Source: Heterodontus francisci
Lineage: Eukaryota
DNA: 64,000 nucleotides
Assembly: GCF_036365525.1 (NCBI RefSeq)
Contig: NC_090376.1
Location: forward strand, 59,050,559 to 59,114,558
Reading direction: 5' to 3'
The number at the start of each line of letters is the position of its first letter. The first letter of the stretch is position 1. Below the pieces are notes generated by a model. The model was given only the letters and a program-made list of their open reading frames with translations. It searched no databases and was not told the DNA's origin. Shown here piece after piece: positions 1-28,484 of the stretch. A program made the position numbers and the translations under genes.

Positions 1-781
1 TGTGCCTTTCTTATAAAGCAGTGGATGACAAACTGCAAGATGTTGGAGATGTTGCCTCCTCCAGTCTGGAAGGAGTCCAATGTGAACAAGTTCATCACGG
101 TAGGCTTTATGACCACTGGCAATGCTGTCCTTGCCCTGCTCTGAGGCTACAGGTCTGCCTCCAATAGGTGACAGATGTCAATGAGATCCCCCTGAGTGAA
201 ATGGGGACATTGCACACACACTTCCTGGCTTGGGTTGAGATAAGAGAATTGCACCTTGAAGACCTTAGGCAGATATCACCTCCTGCTGCCAACCCTTCTC
301 TCCCCACCACTCCTCCCTCTTCAAACAACTTGTCCTTCTCTGTGTCACCTTCTTTCATTCTCCTTGTTATGATGTAGGCCAAGGGGGATACGAACCAGGG
401 ATAGGCACCAGCATGTTGCACTATGGACATTTGACAAAATTATTGACTCAGCCACGGACATGGAGGCAATTAATCTGGATATAAAGTGTATAGCAATCTA
501 AAGCCATCAAAACACAGTTTGATTTAAACCACATTTCTCCCTATACATAAAGAAGCTAAGCATACAAGCATCAATGGACAGCAGCATAACTGTATTAGTT
601 AGCTAGCAAGTAAAATAGTGTGCAATACCAATACAAATTACTTTTGTTGACAGAATAGAGATAGCTACACTATGTCACGGTGTGATAGATGGATCTTATC
701 AAATGGCCTCTGTGGTCTCACACTGTGTCAGGAGTGCAAATTCATCTAATAAGCCAGGAAACTCAAGGAGAAGATTGTTAT

Positions 782-1690
782 TGTTATGACCACAGTTGGA
801 GGAATGCATTGTCTTTCTCTAGTTCCACAACTCCATTGGTTACAACATATATTTAAATGTTTTACCAGGTTACCGATATGGCCAATTATATACTTTGTTA
901 GTTTCAGAATTAAAATCCAACAAACATGTTTCTTTAAGAAATAACAAAATTGTTGACTTATTATAAAACAAGACTTATTCAATAAAGATGCAAAGCTTAT
1001 TAACACACAGTTTAAAATTTGGAAGTATAAATATATTCCCTTCGAAATAACCAACACACACACACACACACACACCGGTTAAAGAAAAATCAAAGAAGCT
1101 TTCTCTGCAGAGATCAACTTTAGAGAAACATAAATACTTCGGCCAAATAATTGTTAATTCATGCAGGAAATAAGAATAAGATATGAAATGTTCCGGCGTT
1201 CGGGTACATGTAGGTGGGTGTCACCAGACACATTTGGTTGTCACTGGGATGTTTTCAGAAGCAATTCTTTCAGGAGATGTCAAGAGGAAGTATTGCAGGC
1301 TTTTTGGGAGAATTACTGCATCAGTGAGGTCAGTTATCTGACTGGATTCTTAAAAGAATTTTCAACACAGGTGGCAAAGGATGAATTGGGTGAGTTCTCT
1401 CTTAGCAGGATACATACCAACTGCCCATTCAAACAGTTCAAAAATGAAACCAACTCCTGACCACCATAAATCTAGACATGTGACTCCAAATAGTTCCATA
1501 GGCCGTAAGGCTCCGGCTGTTTACTTAGCTTAACACATGTGACTTCCGATAACTGTTTTTAAACAAAGTCCCAAATGTACTTGAAATGACCCTTTTAAAA
1601 AAAACAAGGCCAGCATCTCCTCAGGTATTTTCCACAGTCTTTTAACCACAAGTCCTCAAAAATATAAATAATGGAAGCACTTTCATGACA
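782..1690 (-). mobile_element. 3' LTR of a Gypsy (Gmr1-like) retrotransposon
   Basis: Minus strand reads TGTCATGA...GTCATAACA (TG..CA). A polypurine tract (AAAGGAGAAGG) lies immediately upstream at 1691-1701. Homologous to the solo LTR at 24171-26257. Confidence 0.8.
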
Positions 1691-4600
1691 CCTTCTCCTT
1701 TGGAGGAATGAAACAATTTTTAAATGTGTTTCATTATGAAGTGTGGACAAAAGAACACAATATGAAAAAATATTAAAACACACTTACACACTCATTCTCA
1801 TTCACTCTTTACCTGTAACTAATACAATTCTGCCCTGTGCCATCTTTAAACTCAGATAACTCAAAGCAAAGTTAAATTCTATACAAAGCATCAGCAATTA
1901 CATTGTTTTTTCCCACAATGTGTATAAGCTTTAAGTGATTGGGGTGCAATAGTAAACTCCAGCGAAATAGTCTGGCATTCTGATTTTTGAATTTTTCCAC
2001 AAAGGCTAGGCAATAATGATCAGTATATACCAATGTCTCCTGTAACCGTGGCGGGCGTATACTTCAAAATGTTTAAGAGCTAGTAGTAAGCCAGGGTTTC
2101 TTTTTCCACTGTAGAGTATCAGTTTTGGTGTTGATTTAGCTTTTTGGAAAAGTATCCTACAGGCCTTTCCATGCCCAATTCATCTTCTTGTAACAGGACT
2201 GCTCTACCCCCAGGTCACTAGCATCAATTGCTACCTTGAAGGGCTTAGTTCAATTTGGGGCAGCCAACACTGGTACATTGATCAGAATTGCTTTCAGCCT
2301 CTCAAAAGGTGCTTGGCACTCTCCTGACCACAGTACCTTGAATCTCTTTTGCATCAAATCCATCAGTGGAGCAGCTATAGTGCTGAAATTTGGTCCAAAT
2401 TTGCGGTAGAAACCACACATCCCCAAAAACCTCATGATTTCTCATTTAGTCTTAGGAGCAGGGAACTCCAACAATGCTTGTACTTTTGCTATTCTTGGCA
2501 AAACTAGTCCTTCCCCTACTATATGCCCTAGGTAGGTTACCTGTGCTTTTGCAAATTCACTTTTGGCAAGGTTTATCACCAAATCAACCAACTGTAATTT
2601 TCTAAACAGAGTTTCTAGTTGTTCCAAGTGGTCCTTCCAAGTGTCACTGTATACCAGCACATCATCAAGGTAAACCACACCGTTAGAAACACTGGCTACC
2701 ACTTGGTTCAGTAGTTTCTGGAAATTTGCATTGGAAAAGATCGTCTGGTGTAACAAAGGCCTATATTTCTTTAGCTTGGGGTGGTAAAGGAACCTGTCAT
2801 TATCCCTTTAACAAATCTATTTTGGGAAGAACTGTGGCACTGCCAACTTTGTCAACACAGTCTTCCAAGTGAGGAATTGGGTAGGAGTCTGCCTTTGTTA
2901 CTGCATTAACCTTTCTGTAGCCTGTGCAGAATCTAGTTGAACCATCTGGCTTTGGAATTAACATGACTGGGGAACTCCAGCTGCTTTGACTGGGTTCAAT
3001 TAGGTGGTTTTCCAACATGTACTGAATTTCTGCTTTCACCTGGGCCTGTTTCTCTGGACCTGAGCGATAAGGATGCTGTTTTATAGGAGAGGATTCTTCT
3101 ACATCCACATTATGTATGGTGAAGGTTGTACATCCTGGTTTGTCTCTACGACACCTTTAAATGCTGTGAGTAGCCTAGTTAGGTCTTCTTGTTGTTCTGC
3201 ATCTAAATATGAAGGCATAGTGCTGGATTTTGTTCTCCCCCAGGCGTGGGTTCCGTGGCCGGGTTGAGGGGGGGGGGGGGTTGCTGCTGAAGTAGGCTCC
3301 AGATGATGCCTGCCACAGACATCAATGCCCTGAGGGCCTGGCACGATCCTCACGGTGGCTGCGAGGCTCCATGGCAGCCCCCCGCCACTTGTCGACGGGA
3401 TGTCAATTAAAATATTCAAAGCAATAAAATGAATACATTTAAATAGACTTATAGACTTACCTGCCATCTTGAGGGCCCACCACAATCTTTGGTGTGATGG
3501 CCAGCACTCCCGTGCCTTCAAATCCCCATCTGGGGAAACACAGCGCCACACTGATGAGGAGGGGGGAGGAAGTAAGATATTCAGTGTGGAGGGGCGTGGT
3601 CAAATAGACATAATGGGTGTATCAGATGCTGGGAAGGGTTGACCTTTAAACTTTGTGCAGTCTGGGGTGGAAGGTCAGATGTCAAAGGAAAGTGATTTGG
3701 GGGGCAAAGGGCAAATAGTTGCTTTAATTGTTATTGGGGGGATGGGAAAGGGGCGTTATACATTTATTTATTTAATTTTGGGAGAGTTACTTCTTTAAAA
3801 ATGTAAATGTGCCAGCAGGGCTGGCTGTCCTTTAAAAATGACACCAGCGCTTTTGCACAGGCAGCTGAGGCCATTGCTGGCGATGGACAGCCGTCCTCTC
3901 CTTGTGATTGGCGGAGGGATCACCCTGGCCATTTAAATGAGCTGCCACGTGGGAGATTGTGGCAGCTGTTTGACGTGCTGCCTGATTTCTTGAGACGAGA
4001 TTGGCAACGAGCTCTTAAAATCCAGCCCATAATGTCTAATCTCCCTAACAATTCAGTGTTAGCTAACTGCATAGTAGGAGGTTCAATTTGCGAATTGTTT
4101 AGGCCTCCTTCTGCCTCATCCTTGCTATTCGTTGCATCCTTCATTGTCCTTACTAACTGACACCTGTGCTTGCTTATCCTCCTCCCGGTGTTGAAATTGT
4201 TTCAACATATTGATATGGCACGGCCAATTCTTTTTCCGGCGATCTAGAGTGTCAATCAAATAATTTACTTTACCAATCCTTTTGACTACTATAAGGACCA
4301 CTGAACTGTGCTTTCAATGGTTCACCCTGTAAAGGTAGTAATGCTAACACATCATCCTCTAGTTGAAATGTTCGGGTCTTGGCATGCTTGTCTGCCCATT
4401 TCTTCATGGTTGTTTCTGAAGCTTTAAGGTGTTCCTGAACCACTTTTCAGGCTCTTGTGAGCCTCTCCCAGAACACAGATACATAATCTGACATGAAAGG
4501 TTCATCCCTCTCTTCTAAAAACTTTTCTTTGATTAGTTTCAGAGGACCACTTACCTCATGTCCTTAACTAATTCAAAAGGACTAATACCAGTAGACGCGT
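1691..4600 (-). mobile_element. Gmr1-type Gypsy pol remnant, domain order integrase-RT-RNase H, 5' truncated and frameshifted
   Basis: RT motifs PIKQHPYR, SSWSSPV, YPIP, YLDDVLVYS and YLGH (2442-3108). RNase H region FLGMCGFYRKF (2250-2435). Integrase C-terminal motifs SPFEL and FSGPY lie upstream of RT (about 4150-4590). Confidence 0.9.
3220..4028. mobile_element. PIF/Harbinger-type MITE inserted in the Gypsy pol
   Basis: TIRs GTGCTGGATTTT / AAAATCCAGCCC and a 3-bp TSD ATA (3217-3219, 4029-4031). Removing it restores the pol frame LLGRLDIM-PSYLDAEQQ. Confidence 0.8.
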
Positions 4601-6006
4601 TCATGACATTGTGGTTATTGAGGTGAGGCAGCAGAAAAATCAGCAATAAAAATATGGAGCATTTCTCACACTGCTATTGTTACAAGAACATTTAACCCGT
4701 GATGGTCAATGTTTGTGCAACTCCTCCACCTGCTTGTAAAATGTGTCTGAAGACAGGGCAGCCAACAAAAGTGCAGTGATCTCCAAATCAAGATAATTTT
4801 ATCGGATGGAACAGATAGTACTTCGGAAGAGTCATGTAAAACAGAAAATCAGAGTGGGACAGGAGGGACAGAGAGATTAACAGTAGGTAGCCAAGACTAG
4901 TTTATTCATCTTGACAGGCTGGATTCTAAAATACAGAAACAACAGCATCTCTCATGGACAAAATGTCATTTACTCACAAAAGTTAGTGACAACATTAGAT
5001 AAACACAATTACAAATAAAGAGCACCCTTCAGTCCCTCTAATAAAGTGATTCTTTTAAATTCACTTATGTCTATATCTCAGTCTATCACTGTCAATTCTG
5101 ATTCAGCTCTAGCAAGATAATTATTAACGAAAAGCTTTTCTGCAAAACGTTGAGTGGTTGTTACTGCATATATTCATCAGTTATAAATGTTTAGTCACCA
5201 TCTGTAAGATTGTACTCCAGACTAACCAAATTATGTCAAAGCCAAATCTCCTACCTGCCAGTAAAGGTGCACTTTTAATCTTATGTAATTATATGATACA
5301 GACAACTTTCAAAATGACACTGGTCACTCATGTTATCTGCCCTCAAACTGGATAGCAAATGATACACATTGCAGTTACTGATATTTGACATACTTGTAAA
5401 ACTTGTCCTTCAATCCAATTCACAGTAAAATAAACAGTTAATGACAGTTTCTAACATGATCGTTGAAACATAATAAAGTTTTACTATGTCTTCCCTGACA
5501 GTTTTTAAAACTGTAAATGCAGCCTGGATTTTGTTAAGGAATCATTAACAATTAATCATAGATTGAGGTTTATTAAAGCTATCCATTACATTGTATTTAC
5601 TAACTATTGTATATGGTTCAGCAGCATCCTGTTTTTGCCAATATAACTCAGCCCCATTGCACTGTACTCTTATGTTCATGAAGAACTTATAATGCAGACT
5701 TCTGGAGATTCCTTGGATTTTCTTGCCTGTTTTCCCCTCGATACAAGTTCTGGAACAATGTGATTCCAAATGGATATCAGCGGAATTGTGACATTTGCAT
5801 AGAAGTAAAAGTCCAGCAACTTTCAACATGTCACTGAGCTTATGTCCCAAGTAAAAGTAATGCATGCCAGAGTGTAGAAATTGAGACATTCCCTAAGTGA
5901 CTTTTGCCATTTTAAAATGAGTTTACACAACAAAAGCATTTAAACTTGTGTATTAAAATAACCTAGCTGCTTGGTTATTTTAAAACACAAGATTAAAGGC
6001 TTGCAA

Positions 6007-7180
6007 CAGGGGTGTCCAACCTTTTCATTGTGGGGGTGGGGGGTGGGGGGCACATTACAATTTTCTTATTACGTAGGGGGCTGGTGAGACAATTTCAGAA
6101 AGATAAAGGCCTTAAAATGTATCTTACTATTAATCAAAACAACAAAAAATGTGCATTTTTGTGAAGAACCTTTAAATGAGAAAACTAATTTATTGACTAA
6201 TTTTCTCGTCACTATGTTGCACACTGATTTAATGAGATACCTGGCACTTTTTTTTGCTTGCACATGTAGGCAATGTCTGCCCACTCAATTGTAATGATAC
6301 GGAATATTCCAGATAGATATCCATCTGTCAGGAGTGATCTTGATTGCTCTTCCTCCCTCCTCTCTCTCTCTCTATCTCTCTCTCTCCCCCTCCCTTTCTG
6401 TGTTCCCCCCTCTCTGTGTCATTCCCCCCTTCTCCATGTCATGCCCCCTGTGTCGTCGTCCCCCTCTGTTATCCCCCCTCTGTGTTGCCCCCTTCTCTGT
6501 GTCGTCCCCTCTCGCTATGTCATCCGCCCTTTCTCTCTGTCCCTTTCTCTCTCTCTGACCCTCTCTCTTTGTTCCCCCTTTCTCTCTCTCTTTCCTGTCT
6601 CTCTCTCTGTTCCCCCTCTCTCTCTATCTCCCCTCTTTCTCTGCCCTCTCTCTTTCTCTGTCGCCATCTCTCTCTCTCTCTCTGTCCCCCCTCTCTCTGT
6701 GCCCCTCTCTTTCTCTCTGCCTCTTCTTTCTCCCTCTCAGCCCACCTCTCTCTCTCTGCCCCTTGTCTCTGCCCCCACTCTGTCCCTCTCCTCTCACTCT
6801 GTCCCCCACCCTCTCTCTTTCTACCCCCACTCTCTCTGACCCCTCTCTCTCTCTCTCTCTGCCCCACTCTCTCTCTGTGGCTGTAGCTGATAGCAGGAGC
6901 AGCAGTTTGTGAACTTCGGACAGCTTCAGCTTTGTGGTTTTCCGGTGGGCTTTTAAAAAAAATAGGAACCTGCCAAAAACCCCCGAATCGGTCCAAAGTT
7001 TGGAAACCGCTGTTCCGGTTCCCAGCACCTATCAGCTGTGAATATGGAAAGGAGTGTTCATGAACATACGATAAAGAACTTAGAAATTCCACAGTTCCGA
7101 TTTTTCTTTTAAAGCCGGTCTGGTCGGAAAGAAGAAGCCAATGGGAAATTTCTCATCCCTGAACTTACCCATCACGGCCC
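6007..7180 (-). mobile_element. Nested hAT (Charlie-like) derived segment with a transposase C-terminal remnant at about 6229-6345
   Basis: Begins with TIR-like CAGGGGTGTCCAAC. Segment 6229-6345 is homologous to 20112-20230, which encodes the hAT C-terminal motif LTDGHL...CKQKQGQVSH. Confidence 0.55.
6350..6878. repeat. CT-rich low-complexity/microsatellite block
   Basis: Degenerate (CT)n and (TCTC/CCCT)n polypyrimidine tract that generates spurious L/S/P- and R/E/G-rich ORFs. Confidence 0.95.
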
Positions 7181-8020
7181 TCAAAAATTTTTGCCATGGA
7201 CACTGGTGTCCATGTACGGACACGTTGCCGACCCCTGATAAAAATTGCTGGGAACAAGCAGACAGAGCAGAACCTTTGAACCAAAGCCTTCACCATGTGC
7301 CACACCACTCACTATAGACTTCACCAAATTTAAGTAGCAGTACAAACCTTCAATCTAACTTAGCAACAGCCAGTATAAATCAATCAGTAACTAATCTGAA
7401 AGTGGTTGATGATCCCTTTAAATTGAACTGCTGAAGACTTCTTCCCTGCTGCTGAACACATGTTCATTGTCCAAGGTTAAGAGAGGGCATTAGCTGGAGT
7501 GTTCAGGTCAAAAATGGCACCAACTAGAGTCAAATCAATGTTACTCATTGACTGAAGGCATGATCTGTCTACTCTGAATAGCTCTAGTGAATGTTCTCAG
7601 TACCCACACCAATGACCTAGTCAAAATGGTGTCCAGAGGAGCCCACACTGAAGTCTGCACACATGGCACAGACACCATTTTCAACCCAAAATGGCACCTG
7701 CAAGGCTGAAAATATGGGTGCTACACATCTGAATGTTGTTACCACTTGTGCAATAAGGTTTCCCATAGTGCACTTGGATTGTCACTTACTTAAAGATGTT
7801 GAGGAGGTTGCTCAGGCAGAAACTATGCTAACTACTATTGTTGTACAGTTTATTTCCAAGCTTGTACCGAATAATCAACTCCACTATTTTACATAGAATG
7901 GAACATTAGGTATCCTGGACACTTTACTGAAAATTGTATCTGGCTATGTAACAATACAAAATGTGCAGTATAATTGCCGTCATTTGGATTTTGGCTTTTA
8001 GCATGTCTCAATGCTTTATA

Positions 8021-19583: not shown

Positions 19584-20111
19584 TATTTTTTTTTGTTTGC
19601 AGTCTCACTGTAGAAAATCTGTTCAAGTCTAGAACCTAAATCTAATCCACAACTTTCTGACAGAGGGAAAAGTGTCAGCAGCTGAGTGAATTGAACACTA
19701 TATGAGTGACAGTCCTCAATTTTCACTTTGGTGCCACATGAAGGCTGTGCAGGGTGAGGAACAAGCTTGTGTGTATGCTGAGGCCCAAAGAGATTTTAGC
19801 GTCCAATTGTCATTTACATATGCAAGAGCATATTCCTGCCTAACCCGGCAGAAATCACTGCCTGGCCAGCAAACAGTACCGGGACTTCGGTCAGCATGGC
19901 TTCCATTACAAGGTAAGTCTATTATTGGAGGGCTTTGAGAGGGGAATCCCCCATCAAGGGAGGGCAGGGATAGCATCAACATGTTGCACCATGGACATTT
20001 GACAAAATTACTGACTCAGCCATGGACATGAGGGCAGTTAATCTATATATAAAGTGTATAGTCAACCTAATGTCATCAAAACACAATCCAAATTAAAACA
20101 CTTTTTCCCTA

Positions 20112-20340
20112 TTTAGTGAGATACCTGGCCTTGTTTTTGCTTGCACAAGTATTCAATGTCTGCCCGCACACTTGATATGGTGATGCAGAGAATTCAGATA
20201 GATGTCCATCTGTCAGGATTTTTCTTGATCTCTTTCTCTCCCCTCTTTCCCTCTCCTTTTTTTGTGAGATACCTGGCCTTGTTTTTGCTTGCACAAGTAG
20301 TCTATGTCTTCCCGCACACTTGATATAGCGATGCGGAGAA
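20112..20340 (-). pseudogene. Two tandem hAT transposase C-terminal remnants
   Basis: LRIAISSVREDIDYLCKQKQGQVSH (20264-20340) and a second copy with ILTDGHLS...CKQKQGQVSH* (20112-20230). These resemble the C-terminus of Charlie/SPIN/GTF2IRD2-type hAT transposases. Confidence 0.7.
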
Positions 20341-21048
20341 CCTTGGGCTCTTTCATGGGCAGCCAAAAATTAAAAAGTAACTTGTAAGCCTCAGAACTCT
20401 GATACAATATCTTCTTATCTAGTCTATGCTTTGAGTTTCCCCTGTGTTTGAGAGGTATTCTAGAATGCTCTCACTAAAAAGACCCAATAGAACACAGAAA
20501 GCCCACTTTATTTCCCCATCTGTCACTTTTGGAAGCATGGGGAGCATAGTTTTCAAGACAGATTTTAACAGGGGTACAGTGCAATGCACGTTTGCTCTAC
20601 ACAGCCTCGCCATTGTCAGCACCATGTTGAAATATGTTTGTGGCCGTGACCTGAACACTGACTGTATCTTATTGACAATGTCAATGGGAAACTTGGCACC
20701 CAGACTAACCACGAGGCTACTTGCTGCCTCCCCATGTTCATTGATCACATGCTCCGAACCGGTCAGGTCCTTCAAAGCTAATTTTATCAGCTTTTTGGCC
20801 AGTGGTTTGCCTAAGTGTTCAATGTTGTCTTGTATTATAAATGTTATAGCCATTAGTAAGGCAGTGTGTTGTTCTGCTGGCAATTTATTTTTGGTAATGT
20901 CCCTACCACAAAATGTAAGTACGATTTGGTGATTGATTCATCCTAGTTTTCGTGGTGACTGAGAGAATCTAAATTTAACAAAGTCATCTTCATCAGAAAG
21001 CAAGTTCATAATCATGCTCAATGAAGATTGCGTTCTGTTAGTCACCAT
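20341..21048 (-). pseudogene. Intronless N-terminal fragment of a maestro heat-like repeat (MROH1/MROH2-family) gene
   Basis: ATG at 21048 (aaaATGG). Translation ..AASSLVVSLG..TMARLCRANVHCTVPLLKSVLKTMLPML..WAFCVLLGLFSESILEYLSN..AYKLLFNFWLPMKEPK aligns by eye with recalled human MROH1 (AASGVLVAVG..VVPFLPSVLSSLLPVL..FSEGALEYLAN..AYDVLFHQWLQSREAK). One in-frame TGA (20938-20940) and a frameshift near 20415. Confidence 0.75.
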
Positions 21049-21524
21049 TTTAGCGGAACTCAAATACTTCTCTCGTCCTTTAATGTGTTTGTTGGCGGTG
21101 AACACACTTTCGGCTCAGAGTTTTTTGCGCCTTGCTGATAGCTATTTACTTTCTCTTTGTTATCAGTTGATTTTCTGAATTTCTTTTCCCTCCAAACTGG
21201 CTGGTAATATTTTAAATCCCCCAAAATAGTTGTTTAATTACCAACTCTTTTTGGAAATACCATGCAAAGCTGTGGTTCTTGAGTTCTTTATAAATTCAGC
21301 TCAGGGCAAATAAAATCTGTTTGAAATGAACGGTTTCAGACAATGTGCCTGAATGATAAATACACAGCACAGAGCTCTCTGAATTTACTCACAGATAATG
21401 ATGAGTATTGGTGGTGTTATGTTGTCTATCTGTTCTTTTGACATTTATGTTTTTTCTCCACCCTAACATGGGCTCTTTCGCTCCTGTGAACGTAAGTTCT
21501 CACACACACAGATGTCAGTCTTCA

Positions 21525-21834
21525 GACAGGCAGTGGCACGCCTCGCAGCAGACCACCAACTCAATCCCAAGATCCAACTATGAGATTTTTAACTGCAGCA
21601 GCTTTAATATACGCTATTGTAGCTGGAATTACTGGGGCAACTGGCAGCAGACCTGCCCTCCAATAGATCCTCGTTAAAGGATTTAGTGTACTCATTCTGA
21701 TGACAGGGCCTCGAAAGAGTCCTGTATTGTTATTTTTCATCACTACCTCCCCGAGTCAGGAGTGGGTAATTTGCGCGTCTGCTGCCTTCCTCGGATGTGG
21801 TCGGCGTTTCTCAGGCTCCCTCTATGGAATTGAA
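21525..21834 (-). rRNA. 18S rRNA fragment (decayed dispersed pseudogene, ~310 bp)
   Basis: Reverse complement of conserved 18S segments, e.g. tttaatatacgctattg.agctggaattac, cagggcctcgaaagagtcctgtattgttattttt and ggtaatttgcgcg.ctgctgccttcct, with many substitutions. Confidence 0.93.
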
Positions 21835-22436
21835 TGTTATCATGTATCGCAAGTGGAATTGAATACAAAAGGAGGGAGGTATGCTACAGCTATACAGGGC
21901 ATTGGTGAGACCACATCTGGAGTACTGTGGATAGTACTGGTCTCCTTATTTAAGGAAGGATGTAAATGCATTGGAGGCAGTACAGAGAAGGTTTACTAGA
22001 CTAATACCTGGAATGGGCGGGCTGTCTTATGAGGAAAGATTGGACAGGCTAGGAATTTAGAAGAGTAAGAGGTGACTTGATTGAGGGGTCTTGACAGGGT
22101 GGATGTGGAAAGGATGTTTCCCCTTGTGGAAGAATCTAGAACTAGGGGTCACTGTTTAAAAATAAGGGGTTGCCCATTTAAGACACGTGAGGAGAATTTT
22201 TTTCTTTCAGAGGGTCGTGAGTCTTTGGAATTCTCTTTCTCAAAAGGCAGTGGAAGAAGAGTCCTTGAATATTTTTAAAGCAGAGGGAGTTAGATTCTTG
22301 ATAAGCAAGGAGGTGGAAGGTTATCGGAGGTAGGTGGAAATTTGGAGTAATCAGTTCAGCCATGAACTTATTGAATGGCGGAACAAGCTCGAAGGGCCAA
22401 GTGGCCTACTCCTGCTCCTAATTCAAATGTTTGTAT
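21832..22436 (+). mobile_element. CR1 LINE 3' fragment joined directly to the 18S fragment
   Basis: IASGIEYK, LVRPHLEYC and RGLDRVDVERMFPLVEESRTRGH motifs. Same subfamily tail as 11627. Confidence 0.9.
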
Positions 22437-22700
22437 GTCCCCTCTCTGTGTCCATCTCTCTCCCCTCTTTCTCTCTTCCCCCCCTCTGTGTCCCACTCTC
22501 TCTCTCTCCTCTCTCCCCTCTCTGTGGCTGTCACTCTCCACTCTCTCTCCCTCCCTCTGCTCCCTGGGCTGGGTCTGGTTTAAAGAGCTCCCTGACTCTC
22601 TCTCTCTGTGCTCCCTCAGTACCGCTCTGTCCACGCCTCTGCCTGTGTGCTGGTCCACTTGCTGTTCTCCCCTCAGCCTTTCTCCCCCTCTCCCCCACAG
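22437..22700. repeat. CT-rich low-complexity block
   Basis: Polypyrimidine tract analogous to 6350-6878, followed by a TIR-like end GTTAGATAACCCAG at about 23016-23029. Confidence 0.85.
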
Positions 22701-24754
22701 GAGCCATTCCCATTCACTTGCTCACTTCCTGAACTCTGTGAAAATAGCGGGGGTGGCCGATCCCAGTGTGCCTGCCATGTGAACCATCAATCAGCGCTCA
22801 CCCCGCCCGGGCTGCTCACTGTCAGTCAGACAGTGACCAATCACAGAAAGGCACCTGCCGCCCATGAGACAGAGATCCCGCCTACCCCCGCCATGTGACG
22901 TGAACATTAATAGGTGAGCCGCCAATCAAAGCCGGGCCAAAGGCTGTCCGCTGTCAGTCACTGGCGGGCCGGATGGAAGCCTTCGGCTGGCTGGATTCTA
23001 GCCCACAGGTCACATGTTAGATAACCCAGTTTTGAAATAACCTAGATGCTAGGTTATTTTAAAACACAAGTTTAAAGGCTTGAAGCAAGACATTTAAAAT
23101 TAGCATGGATGTCAAAATTTTTACCACTTGACACTGGTGTCCATGTATGGACACGCTACCGACCCCGAGGGAGGATGGAGCAAACTTGGGACCCCGAAAA
23201 GCCCTCCTGTTCTTCCTGGCTCACAAGGGAAAAAAAATGTAAAACCTCACTTCACTGGGCATCTTCAGGTCCTGGTCGCTGTTCCCACCATGTTTGGCCT
23301 TGTGGGGAAGCCACAACTCCTCCACTATTCAGGCCTTAGGTTAAAATGGCCCTGGTGTCGTCCTCGGGACCCAACCTACATATTTAAAGATGACCCACTG
23401 ACTTGCACTGGGTGCTCTTGCCACCTGTATTTTAAATTGCAGTCGGCCAGATCAGGCGAGAAAGGAATGGGTAAATTTCTCAACTCCCTCACCTGGTGGA
23501 AATCAAGACCAAGCAACAATATTTTTCTTCACTTTTTGCCTTTGATCTGCTATTCGACTTGTGCATTTTCACCCATCAACTACCAGTAACAAAAGGTTTA
23601 TGCACATGTACTATTATCTTAAGTTTTCAACTGCTTAGCATCCTTCCATCTACGAAAGATGATGGACACCCAGCAAACAATTCATTTAGATGGGGTGTCT
23701 TCTCCTGGTGCACCTTTTCTGATGGCTGTGAAGGCCAATCCTTGAGAGGCAGGTTCTGCCACAAGTGCTGCACATGAAGCTGCCAAGTGACGCTGTGAGT
23801 TGTTGTTTTTGACGTTGCCGCCCGTTGCCGAGCTGTTGTAGCCACTAGTCATCATGGCAGTGCACACCAGTCCACAGGATGTGTCGCCATTTCCCTCTTT
23901 CGCCAGCTCGTGACTCCTAGGTGGGATAGTCGATATTTAGGGCCTTCATGTCACGCTTGCAAACATCCTTGATGCGGAGCTTTGGGAACCCCACTGGTCA
24001 TCTGGCCCCAGCTACCTCACCATACAGAAGGTTCTTGGGTATGCGACCGCCTTCTATCTGGGGACTTGTCCAATCCACCAATCCAATCCAGCCTCTTTTG
24101 ATTAGTGCCGACACACTTGGGAGCTCTGCCTTTGAGAGGACTGCAGCATTTGTGATTTTGTCCTGCCAGGTGTTATGAAAGTGCTTCCATTTTTAAATAT
24201 TTTTTGAGGACTCGTATTTAAAAATTGTGGAAATGGATTCATTTGAAAGACTGAAGAGATTCCATAGATGCTGGACTTTGTTTTTTTTTAAAGGTCACTG
24301 GAAGGACTTGAGATTTTGTTTAAAAACAATCCCTTACTGGAAGTCACATGTCTTAAGCTAAGTAAACAGCAGGAGCCTTGGTGACAAGGGGAGTTGCTTA
24401 CAGAAAAGTGACATGTCAAGATTTATGGTCGTCAAGAGTTGGTCTCGTTTGGATATTGTTTTGAGTCAGTTGGGGGTAAGTCTGCTAAAAGAGAAGCCAC
24501 CAGCTCATCCTTTTCCCACCACTTTGTGAAACCTTGAGAATCCAGTGTGATAGCTGAAACCCCTGATACAGTGATTCTCCTGGAAAGCCTGCCAGACTAA
24601 TCCTCGACATCACCTGAAAAGAACTGCTCCAAAAAGATCCTAGCGAGAGCCGTCTATGCGCATTTGGACACCAGAATAAAGGACCAGCTGAGACATCCCA
24701 TATCTTATCCTTTTATCTTCAAGAATTAACAAGTATTTGTTAATTCTTGCCACT

Positions 24755-25088
24755 GCACAGTGGCGCAGTGGTTAGCACCGCAGCCTCACAGCTCCAGCGA
24801 CCCGGGTTCAATTCTGGGTACTGCCTGTGTGGAGTTTGCAAGTTCTCCCTGTGTCTGCGTGTGTTTCCTCCGGGTGCTCCGGTTTCCTCCCACATGCCAA
24901 AAAGACTTGCAGGGTGATAGGTTAATTGGCCATTATAAATTGCCCCTAGTATAGGTAGGTGGTAGGGAAATATAGGGACAGGTTGGGATGTGGTAGGAAT
25001 ATGGGATTAGTATAAATGGGTGGTTGATGGTCGGCACAGACTCGGTGGGCCGAAGGGCCTGTTTCAGTGCTGTATCTCTAAACTAAAC
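24755..25088 (+). mobile_element. HE1-type V-SINE
   Basis: Near-identical to 15021-15373. Confidence 0.92.
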
Positions 25089-25391
25089 TATTTGGCCAAA
25101 GTTTTTTTTTGTCTTTTTTTGCAAAGAGATCTCTGCAGAGGAAACTTCTTTATTTTTCCATTAACTGGTGTGTGTGCGCCTGAGTTTTCTGGTAATTTAG
25201 AAGGGAACTTTCATATTTCAACCTGTGTATTAATAAGCTTTGCATCTTTATTGAATAAGTCTTGTTTTATAATAAATTAATAATTTGGTTGTTTAATAAG
25301 GATACCTGGTTGGTGGATTTTACTCTGAAACTAAAATAGATAAAGTATATAATTGGTTGTATCAGTAACTAGGTAAAACATTTAAATATAT

Positions 25392-26180
25392 ATAGTCGTT
25401 TGGTAGTATAGATCTTGAGTATTGCTGAAAACGAAGACATTTTGTCAAAGCTTTTCATCTTGCACTCATTAGGACAATTTGCAAGAATACCAATGTAAGG
25501 AAAAGCAACAAATTGATATTGTATAAGAAGGGAGTGCTGATTGGTTGGCAAGTGAACTCTGATTGATGGAGGCATTGCCATGGTGAATGCACCCGTTTAT
25601 GATGACTGACAGTTAACTGCCAAGCTTTGTTTGAAATTTAAAACAGGCAGCTTGACTCTGATTGGTCAAGGCATTGCCCTGAGGAATGAACCAGTGAATG
25701 GCTGTCACTTATTTAGTTTTACTGAAACAGGCGCAATGTGTGTACATGTTCTTTCTGCCTGCAAAGGACAGAGCTCTGTGTATTAATATAGGTAGCTTCC
25801 AGTACGTGCAAATGCGCCACACTGTGGGCCCAGCTGACAACCTCAAGTTGGTTGTCAGCGTAATTCTTAGCACACTGCGGACTATTTAGCAAATGTTGTC
25901 CAATCGTGGAATCATTCCTCAGGGCAATGCCTTGACCAATCAGAGTCAAGCTGCCTGGTTTAGATTTCAAACAAAGCTTGGCAGTTAACTGTCAGTCACC
26001 ATAAACTGGTGCATTCTCCATGGCAACGCCTCTACTAATCAGAGTCCACTTGCCAACCAATCAGCACTCTCTTCTCGTAGAGTATAAATCTGTTGTTTTC
26101 CCTTACATTGGTATTCTTGCAAATTGTCCTGATGAATGCAAGATGAAAAGCTTTGACAAAATGTCTCTGTTTTCAGCAAT
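25392..26180 (-). mobile_element. Penelope-like element 3' fragment with inverted pseudo-LTRs
   Basis: GIY-YIG C-terminal peptide STIGQHLLNSPQCAKNY...LEATYI....LCRQKE (25719-25915). Inverted arms of about 270 bp at 25420-25689 and 25912-26181. Flanking duplication ATTTAAATATAT (25380-25391, 26181-26192). Confidence 0.85.
26124..26159 (+). ncRNA. Minimal type I hammerhead ribozyme motif in the Penelope pLTR
   Basis: TTGTC-CTGATGA-ATGCAAGAT-GAAA-AGCT-TT-GACAA: stem I TTGTC/GACAA, conserved CUGAUGA and GAAA boxes, palindromic stem III AAGCTT. The mirror copy at 25442-25477(-) has a mutated core (CTAATGA). Confidence 0.65.
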
Positions 26181-28484
26181 ATTTAAATATATGTTGTGAC
26201 CCATGGAGAAGTGGAACTGGAGAAAGACAGTGCACTCCTCCAGCCTCGGTCGTAACAGGATATATCCATATTGCATCACAGACAGCAAAGATGGAAACTA
26301 TTGAGCTTCTTTTCCTGGTAGCTGTAAGTTGCCCATGTTTCACAGCCATACGGCAAGGTCCTGAGAACATAGGCCTTATAAACCATCAGCTTGGTGCTAA
26401 GGGTCAGCTTGGTGTTATCCCATGAGCGTTTCGCGAGTCAGCCAAAAGTGGTAGCTGCTTTTGCTATGTGTGGATCGAGCTCTGCATCAAGGGACAGATG
26501 TCTGTCACCATGGATCCAAGATAGCAGAATTTGCTAACCACTTCTAGTGGGGTGGGGTGTTATTTAGTGTGATCAGGAGCGGAGATGCAACACCTTGTCC
26601 CACGACTACAGTTTTCTTGATGCTTATAGTCAACAAGTTACAGGCATAGAGAGACAAACGTAGCAAATAGATTTTCACTAATGTCACATTATATAACACC
26701 TGCACTCTGCGAACCATGACCAATACTGCTTCCATTGCTCGTCAGCAGGGTCTTTTGTCTGAAATGCAATTGTTCGACTGTGCTGCAAAACAGATTTCTT
26801 TCAGTTAGGTCTTGCTGGCTGGGTTTCATCAGTCATCCATTGTGCGCATCTACATTGTTATGTCCTTGAGAGTATAAAGCTGCTAATACTTTCATTTCAT
26901 TTTATATCTTCCTCAAGTAAATTTCATTCAACATTTTGGGCATAAAATGCATCAGTCAGCCCATCATTCACCTCTTGTCTTGGTTGAGCAGACACTGTAT
27001 GGTCAGGATTAAATGAGATTGATACCACAACACTGTCAGCATAAAAACAGTTTTTTATTTGTTGCGGGGGTTGAGGGAGGGTGGGGGGGTGCGGTGTTGG
27101 AGTGGGTCCATGTGGAACAAGCAGATTTATCCAAAGGAATGCTAACTGCTTGACAGATAGTGAAAGATATCCATCTCAGTGCCTATGGTAGTTTATACTG
27201 CTTTACAAATAGGGACAGTGATTGACTTTGTGTGATAGTGTAAAATGGGTGGTAGTTAACTGGCAGCCTATTTTATATATCTCCCAATCTTTATTTGCAT
27301 TGAAGAAGTCAATTGGGAGAGATTTAAAATGGGCTGCAAAGTCGCTGTCAGCTATGTTATACTATCACACAAATGCAAAATCTACCCCATAATAGCAAAA
27401 AGAACAAGAAGCATTTGGCTCTCATAAGCATTCAGTTGGTGAGTGACTATAGGCAGATTATTTTTCTGATATGAGTAAGGAAGACTTTGAGATTGCTATT
27501 AATTAATTAACAATCAAGCTGACCATAGACAGCACAAGACCTCGCCATCCCACTCTAGACTCTGTCAGCTCCCACAGCTATCTATTCCATTTCAAGTTCA
27601 CTGGATATATAAGGCAGAATGTTACCAGCCCTATGGAGGCAGGAATGGAGGTGGAGGGGCCAGTAAAATGGAGTTGGGGTGCGTCGGGCTGGCTCCCGCA
27701 TCTTCCCACTGTCAACCAATTTTACCAGACGCGAGAGGGAGGACAGATCAGTGGCTGACAGAAAAGTGATGGGCAGGTAATTAAGGTTGTTAAACAGCCA
27801 ATTGTCAGGTATTTTCCTACCTTTTTCTGATTTTATCAAAAGCACACGGGATGCACGGAGGCTTAGAGTCTCACCTGCTCAAATAAGGCGAGATCTCAGT
27901 GGCAGCTGAGTTGTGCAGGGAACTGGTAGCTGTACTGTGAAGCTGTCTGCAGGCTGTGTGTTGAAGAAGCGAATCTATCAAGTTTGGAGGCACTGTAGAG
28001 GGTGGGGTCAAGATGATGTGCTGCAAGTGGAAAGGAGTCTCCCAAGTCCACAGCAGCCACTGGAGGCAGGACAAGGTTCTTCAGAGGCTCATCGCAGAGG
28101 AGGATTCATCTGGCTATGGGGTCAATGCTTTCAGATTCTGACTCCTCCAGTCAGGAGGAGAGTAGCACAGCGATGGGGATGCAATGGCCAGGGGAGCTCC
28201 AGCAGCCTGAGGAAACCATTGGATGTGGATGAGGAGGGAGATTAGGGGAAAGTGGGCAGCCTCATATTCACAGAAAGCACTATCCAGCTCAAAGGGTGCA
28301 CCATCAGAGGCTCAGCATCATCAAAATGTCTGAGCACCAATGTCTCTCCAGGGAGGTGGTGGTGGAGCTGTGCAGAGTTTTGGACCAGGAGTTGATGCCA
28401 TTGGAAAATGACAGACACCCAATGTCTGCAGCCTTAAAGGTGATGTTGGCACTCAACTTTATCGCCTGTGGTTCATTTCAGGGA

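Follow-up and report, generated by a model that had tools for sequence, protein, structure and literature searches.

Within the window, by which we mean the whole 64,000-nucleotide stretch of Heterodontus francisci DNA analysed here (C6:59,050,559-59,114,558 of a 6.0-Gb assembly, the single assembly covered by our genome searches), positions 19965-23167 are one copy of a hAT transposon with a 2.2-kb insert inside it. The parts of the insert lie in series: a duplicate of the element's own left arm, a fragment of an MROH-family gene, a piece of 18S ribosomal RNA (rRNA) and the 3' end of a CR1 long interspersed nuclear element (LINE). We consider it probable that the insert arose when a CR1 retrotransposed, in a single event, into a hAT already in place, and that in the course of this event the MROH and 18S pieces were copied from cellular RNA by twin priming and a template switch. 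On this reading the hAT was the target of the event and not its agent, and as far as the assembly shows the composite has not transposed further. It has decayed like dead DNA and bears no sign of function.

The insert opens with a direct duplicate (20260-20340, plus strand) of positions 20112-20192 of the same copy, recognised by alignment and a shared private base, offset by 148 bp and entered through a TTTTGTG/TTTAGTG microhomology (6/7). The duplicate and the first copy share a C seen in 0/52 family copies and an A seen in 8/52, so the duplicate was likely made from this very copy, in place, after mutations had begun to accumulate in it. There follows the MROH fragment (20340-21519, minus strand), which by paralogue alignment and Pfam comprises about 460 nt before the ATG and about 240 codons, with one stop and one frameshift; it stops within the coding sequence and has no poly(A). 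Four nucleotides (TTCA, 21521-21524, plus strand), which in the alignment match neither neighbour, separate it from a decayed 310-nt internal fragment of mature 18S rRNA (21525-21834, minus strand). A reading made earlier from the letters of the window alone (hereafter the sequence-only reading) had recognised this fragment, and its 90% identity to ribosomal DNA (rDNA) arrays confirms it. The CR1 that the same reading placed inside the element is likewise there (21828-22438, plus strand): compared with CR1 family copies, it is 5'-truncated, keeps the natural (TTCGTATG)n tail of its family and overlaps the 18S piece with its first 7 nt. Nothing is left over on its 3' side, where the CT-rich tract of the hAT picks up at its normal start, and no loss of hAT sequence is evident at the insert. 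The order and orientation of these parts, their junctions, the single-copy status of the composite and the base common to the duplicate and its own arm are direct observations.

Truncation at the 5' end together with an intact 3' tail is the usual mark of target-primed reverse transcription. The CR1 piece has at most 4 derived bases in common with any of 16 other copies, and therefore was not copied from a neighbour; a nearby CR1 as DNA template was ruled out in this way, the nearest CR1 of the window sharing 1/21 derived bases with the piece. The MROH and 18S pieces both stand directly 5' of the CR1 and both are antisense to it. A simple template switch from CR1 RNA is ruled out by this orientation, which is as expected if synthesis was primed from the opposite strand and then jumped from MROH to 18S. 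Both pieces correspond to sequence with known or possible transcription, namely mature 18S, which is only a small part of an rDNA unit 17-29 kb long, and the 5' portion of a gene whose 1,707-codon frame is intact; the RNA origin proposed for the cargo in the sequence-only reading is the likelier one. The best MROH and rDNA sources are located on other contigs, the rDNA arrays, among the best 40 hits, on C3 and small contigs. At the joint between 18S and CR1 the overlap matches at 6/7, a value reached in 0.2% of 20,000 random joins, which is a somewhat generous figure since the overlap itself helps to set the boundary. Changes in the 18S piece affect 12/42 CpG sites and 17/268 other sites, and the non-CpG divergence of the CR1 (27/578, 4.7%), the 18S piece (17/268, 6.3%) and the hAT arm (18/256, 7.0%) does not differ significantly (Fisher P 0.18-0.86).

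The event may be pictured as follows. The CR1 machinery would nick the start of the CT tract and, beginning at the 3' tail, copy about 640 nt of CR1 RNA. The free top-strand end would slip back 148 bp on the 6/7 microhomology and re-copy about 75 nt of the hAT arm, after which it would prime within an MROH mRNA and be extended by 1.18 kb towards the 5' end of that mRNA. Four untemplated bases would then be added before the enzyme jumped to 18S rRNA and copied 310 nt of it, and finally the two cDNAs would anneal through the second 6/7 microhomology and the gap would be sealed. Taken together, these steps would amount to twin priming in trans with one template switch. Untemplated bases are known to precede jumps of reverse transcriptases. 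We give about even chances to the more specific notion that a CR1-clade reverse transcriptase can prime in trans on a cellular mRNA, jump to 18S and write 1.5 kb of antisense cDNA in a single insertion, although such enzymes are regarded as strict in their preference for their own RNA.

A search for the MROH sequence returned 13 candidates, all of which were scored: the window locus, seven on C11 (85-88% identity), one on C40, pieces on C13 and two weak ones. These copies are located at C11:13.16-19.02 Mb, C40:21.53 Mb and C13:16.76 Mb. The source gene on C11 has a single-exon, intact 1,707-codon open reading frame (ORF) with MROH/Maestro HEAT domains (L094:1025-6145, C11:13.185-13.190 Mb) and exists as two tandem copies 99.5% alike, accompanied by several broken paralogues on three contigs. 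MROH1 is a multi-exon gene in other vertebrates, and the single-exon copies are likely a retrogene family. On the fragment itself, the Pfam domain HEAT_MROH2B_1st scores 25.5 bits (E=1.2e-5), below the cut-off of 27. The intronless MROH-family fragment that had been reported is therefore present, but its lack of introns reflects a source ORF with a single exon; splicing does not reveal an RNA origin here, and intron loss was rejected as a proof of descent from mRNA. Three gaps seen against L017 and the C13 copy are missing from the intact MROH gene, and the ORFs in the C13 gap read retroelement-like. The private changes in the piece comprise 10 synonymous and 23 non-synonymous ones (ratio 0.61), the paralogue counts being too small for comparison, and divergence on its branch amounts to 8.2%, CpG sites included. 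About 200-230 bp upstream of the point that matches window position 21519, locus L099, an MROH paralogue, has two motifs, which we take to be E-box-like (GGTCATGTGAC) and CRE-like (GACGTCA). These may mark the promoter, in which case the fragment would begin close to where the transcript has its 5' end.

The sequence-only reading had proposed that a shark hAT family captures RNA-derived cargo and re-mobilises it, in the manner of a Pack-hAT. It had predicted that the cargo would recur at loci with different target-site duplications (TSDs), and had itself named confinement to one locus as what would speak against the proposal. Confinement is what was found: MROH sequence lies within a hAT at the window locus only, among the 13 scored candidates, and the 18S/CR1 joint is spanned by the window locus only, among the best 40 of 1,932 candidates. 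No hAT ends surround the MROH paralogues in six stretches totalling 190 kb, and 0/95 family loci (737,523 bases) contain a match to the MROH gene or to rDNA. The other copies have a few invariant interiors with nested repeats. Foreign inserts of at least 70 bp occur in 14/52 other complete copies, 13 of them repeat-derived and one a copy of local flanking DNA. For eleven of the 14, at least 85% of the length is matched at other fetched loci; the remaining repeat-derived ones are a long terminal repeat (LTR) element with nested CR1s and a patchwork of repeats. Gene or rRNA pieces were not seen among these 14 inserts, nor was a foreign insert at the same site in two of the fetched complete copies. 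The insert of L069 was found to be repeat-derived. The local copy is at L126:5979-6129 (C1:50,120,199-50,120,349), where 151 bp were copied, with 93% likeness, from single-copy flanking DNA 34 bp past the element's own right end; to judge from the sequence, L126 is a textbook single-copy Pack-TIR made by local gap filling. A search for an empty paralogous site of the window element gave six weak partial matches to the left flank, none extending to the insertion point.

In favour of a cargo-capturing family that transposes again, the window element has both ends and a TSD, multicopy Pack-hATs exist in the frog (hAT-N8_XT with the CAPSL 5' untranslated region, PMC8277862; this and the other papers cited by PMC number are drawn on in extracts), and the 77 loci of types A, B and C examined come from thousands. 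The single occurrence of the MROH piece and of the 18S/CR1 joint, the empty count at the family loci and the arm duplicate, which points to formation in place, nevertheless make such a family very improbable. The accompanying statement that capture of this kind is little described in vertebrates is also outdated: the extracts of PMC8277862 (Tan et al., 2021) list 370 animal Pack-TIRs, of which 208 are hAT elements, nearly all single-copy (4/281 multicopy). With no such family supported, views on gene capture by vertebrate DNA transposons are unchanged by this locus.

Several observations weigh against a CR1 event on cellular RNA. We infer the RNA template from a single locus; its MROH source has one exon, and the fragment follows the genomic paralogues colinearly, with no intron skipped. 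The timing of the arm duplicate depends on one private base in 79. At the junction of arm duplicate and MROH, where priming would have occurred, complementarity is weak, with 1 shared base and a loose GC.ATGC match (6/7) three bases away. The insert site is a low-complexity CT tract, in which a TSD around the whole insert is unreadable. No second example of a dispersed 18S pseudogene came from the search with one decayed 23-nt motif, which catches a small share of such sequences and gave 1 hit, on an rDNA contig. The filler of L126 entered by microhomology, and the hAT family therefore does take up DNA fillers. From the literature, the extracts of PMC4476161 (Doucet et al., 2015) describe antisense U5/L1 chimeras, for L2 and RTE only sense template-switch chimeras, and one inconclusive CR1 case; 5' inversions, in the extracts of PMC4245944, occur almost only with L1.

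Some of these points favour a single repair event on DNA templates, in which a break at the CT tract, or an unfinished CR1 5' junction, was filled by template switching among the element's own arm, an MROH paralogue and rDNA, either genomic or extrachromosomal. The first extra piece, the arm duplicate, was copied from local DNA; L126 offers a clear case of a DNA filler within the hAT family; the microhomologies at the junctions suit either kind of template; the similarity between the MROH fragment and its colinear paralogues continues for about 800 bp upstream of the start of the fragment; and repair on DNA is the usual route to animal Pack-TIRs (PMC8277862). Gap fillers are, however, biased towards nearby DNA of the same chromosome (59.8% intrachromosomal, PMC8277862), whereas the best sources here lie on C11, C40 and C13, and for rDNA on C3 and small contigs among the best 40 hits. 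Under repair on DNA, which we regard as rather unlikely, one would less expect two distant templates that are both RNA-coding and both antisense to the CR1.

Alternatively, the insert may have begun as a tailless MROH/18S retrocopy or filler, at whose edge a CR1 integrated at a later time, perhaps with loss of the old junction. The CR1 would then have had to hit, in a target of 2.6 kb, a point only a few bases from the 18S/CT boundary, and there is no 18S or MROH remnant 3' of the CR1, where the CT tract continues from its usual start. We hold separate events to be distinctly unlikely on these grounds, even though CR1 is very common and present in at least 4/52 other complete copies (L065, L077, L123 and L146), the 18S piece is slightly, though not significantly, more diverged than the CR1 (6.3% vs 4.7%), and tailless retrocopies are known in human, two of them from 18S (PMC5322556). 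A chimera of the assembly or library is hardly credible: chimeric reads often contain rRNA pieces and repeats, but each piece here has diverged by 5-15% from its source and the 18S piece shows CpG decay (12/42), which means that they have been ageing within the genome.

The resident element, 19965-23167, is a copy of an abundant non-autonomous hAT family, typically about 1 kb long, with 8-bp TSDs. The 8-bp near-repeats reported around it hold up: the left TSD AGGGAGGG (19957-19964, plus strand) and the right TSD AGGGAGGA (23168-23175, plus strand) agree at 7/8, and agreement of at least 7/8 among random flanking 8-mers has a frequency of 0.0005. The left arm (19965-20266, plus strand, 87-89% identical to 39 other top-scoring copies), defined by genome copies and alignment, comprises an imperfect terminal inverted repeat (TIR; CAGGG...), the 3' end of the transposase gene and the start of the CT tract. 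After the insert, the CT-rich tract (22439-22720, plus strand, 79% pyrimidine) leads into a right arm of subfamily B (22560-23167, plus strand, 72-78% identical to 39 other top-scoring copies), whose right TIR has one base fewer than the usual ...GACCCCTG. The TIRs are short and imperfect (CAGGGATAG... / ...CGACCCC(T)G), and the same ends are found in 52 other complete copies across the genome, where paired ends with 8-bp TSDs, as previously postulated, do occur at other loci.

Genome searches gave 4,445 candidates for the left arm (the best 40 scored at 86-89% identity) and 2,282 for the right arm. Loci were fetched with the left arm (39) and with the right arm (38); they are the best-scoring copies and not the whole family. 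Both ends were present in 26 of each set; from the left-arm set, 11 were dropped for having no right end within 10 kb, 1 for having a right end only upstream and 1 for a damaged left end. A TSD agreement of at least 6/8 was found in 12/26 and 10/26 complete copies, compared with 0.66 and 0.69 expected (2,000 shuffles). The median length over 54 complete copies (52 fetched and two in the window) is 1.1 kb, and the plan is constant: a left arm of about 290 bp, a CT tract that varies in length and a right arm of one of three types. Around the CT tract there are at least four interiors (A-D), form D adding an interior of 1.7 kb. Since the CT tract belongs to this plan, the CT block counted as cargo in the sequence-only reading is present but is not cargo; the block and 22560-23167 are standard family interior.

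The transposase remnants reported in the element fared unevenly. At 20116-20193 (minus strand, stop at 20113-20115) lie the last 26 codons of a transposase of the GTF2IRD2-like group, 17/24 identical to the ORF L177:1375-2289, and these belong to the standard family arm; a second scrap, at about 20260-20340, is the local duplicate of the element's own left arm. The codon pattern runs past the CT junction in 7 family copies (L175-L181), compared with 0 in the control. The L177 copy has a 305-amino-acid transposase ORF that is 68% identical to an axolotl GTF2IRD2-like protein and scores 17.5 bits with PF05699, below the cut-off of 21.4. From these alignments, the family appears to be derived from a hAT transposase element, of the group presumably called Charlie/SPIN. 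The likeness of the longer transposase copies L175-L181 to the axolotl protein (68%) might be a sign of horizontal transfer.

The element compared with it in the sequence-only reading, at 396-7237 (plus strand), does share its ends: 19965-20112 matches 396-544 at 84.7% over 150 bp, and 23114-23166 matches 7184-7235 at 88.7% over 53 bp. It is a subfamily D copy of the same family, and its interior, once considered as unique cargo, is colinear in 11/11 fetched copies and has 2,325 candidates in the genome, which rules this out; no host-gene cargo was identified in 396-7237. D copies are normally about 2.7 kb long, and an LTR retrotransposon has entered this one, between 784 and 4608. The LTR retrotransposon remnant at 784-4608 is interrupted by another repeat near 3230-4030, and related LTR-like sequence lies at 24168-26257. 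In several copies, the minus strand of the invariant subfamily D interior (window 545-784 and 4608-6230; L158-L168; 2,325 candidates) stays open over long stretches. No protein match was found for it in Pfam (0/6 frames at a meaningful score), among 622 candidates or among 1.84 billion representatives, and it could be an old capture that was later amplified. Internal CAGGGG... and ...CATCCCTG motifs in window 6007-7237 and in the right arms of subfamilies A and D resemble the ends of inner hATs, which suggests that subfamilies arose by nesting of hAT in hAT. A near-palindrome of 55-70 bp (…AAAATAACCTAG…CTAGGTTATTTT…) is present at window 5934-6002 and 23029-23082 and in the interiors of B, C and D.

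If the origin proposed here is correct, some vertebrate "Pack-hATs" would have been made by LINE machinery on RNA and not by DNA gap filling, and genomes rich in CR1 would hold uncatalogued retrocopies of gene fragments at CR1 5' ends. Twin priming on cellular RNAs, known for mammalian L1, may then extend to CR1, as judged from one decayed locus, and CR1 5' junctions could be a route of gene-fragment duplication in CR1-rich genomes.

In its family background, the window element resembles other non-autonomous hATs with a GTF2IRD2-like transposase, with CAGGG ends, an 8-bp TSD, a C-terminal remnant and thousands of candidates, and there is no essential difference. By its shape, 19965-23167 also counts as a single-copy Pack-TIR, which is a known kind. 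Like those of PMC8277862, it has host sequence between the ends of one hAT, is single-copy, was likely formed after transposition and shows microhomology at its junctions. Its parent is unlinked to the transposable element, and a local filler is true only of the arm duplicate, nearby filling being a tendency and not a rule. Unlike the Pack-TIRs in the extracts of PMC8277862, it has distant sources and an insert that includes rRNA and the 3' end of a LINE, and its MROH identity (85-88%) and several paralogues would fail the 90% unique-parent filter of that study. With multicopy Pack-TIRs (frog Pack-hAT-N8_XT; plant Pack-MULE and Pack-TYPE) it shares a gene fragment flanked by a TIR element, but not their defining trait, a second copy with another TSD.

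The insert is nearer to the chimeras of LINEs with cellular RNA. For L1, antisense chimeras with tRNA, with 5S and with some mRNAs have been ascribed to twin priming, those with 28S being mostly sense (PMC13174262, Law and Burns, 2026); the main text of that paper does not mention "18S" (0 occurrences). We found no antisense mRNA or 18S chimera with CR1, and no description of this hAT family, in the mostly open-access literature, and the supplements of PMC13174262 and PMC8277862 may hold cases. The zebrafish LINE inserts of the L2/CR1 type (PMC4245944, PMC4760211) have extra 5' nucleotides templated from flanking DNA (PMC4760211), comparable with the arm duplicate of about 75 nt, but these extras are several nucleotides from flank or LINE DNA and not kilobase pieces of cellular RNA, as proposed here; TSDs of CR1/L2 peak at 3-5 bp (PMC4245944). 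Like the antisense RNA/L1 chimeras made by twin priming, the window locus has a putative fragment of cellular RNA fused, in opposite orientation, to the 5' end of a 5'-truncated LINE with an intact tail, with microhomology at the joint, and both rRNA and mRNA are reported partners of L1 (PMC13174262, PMC4476161), as they would be of CR1 here. Unlike those chimeras, it has a CR1, a flank-templated duplicate that comes first and two probable RNA partners in series (1.18 kb and 0.31 kb). It is the CR1 clade and the two RNAs in series that set this locus apart from known RNA/LINE chimeras.

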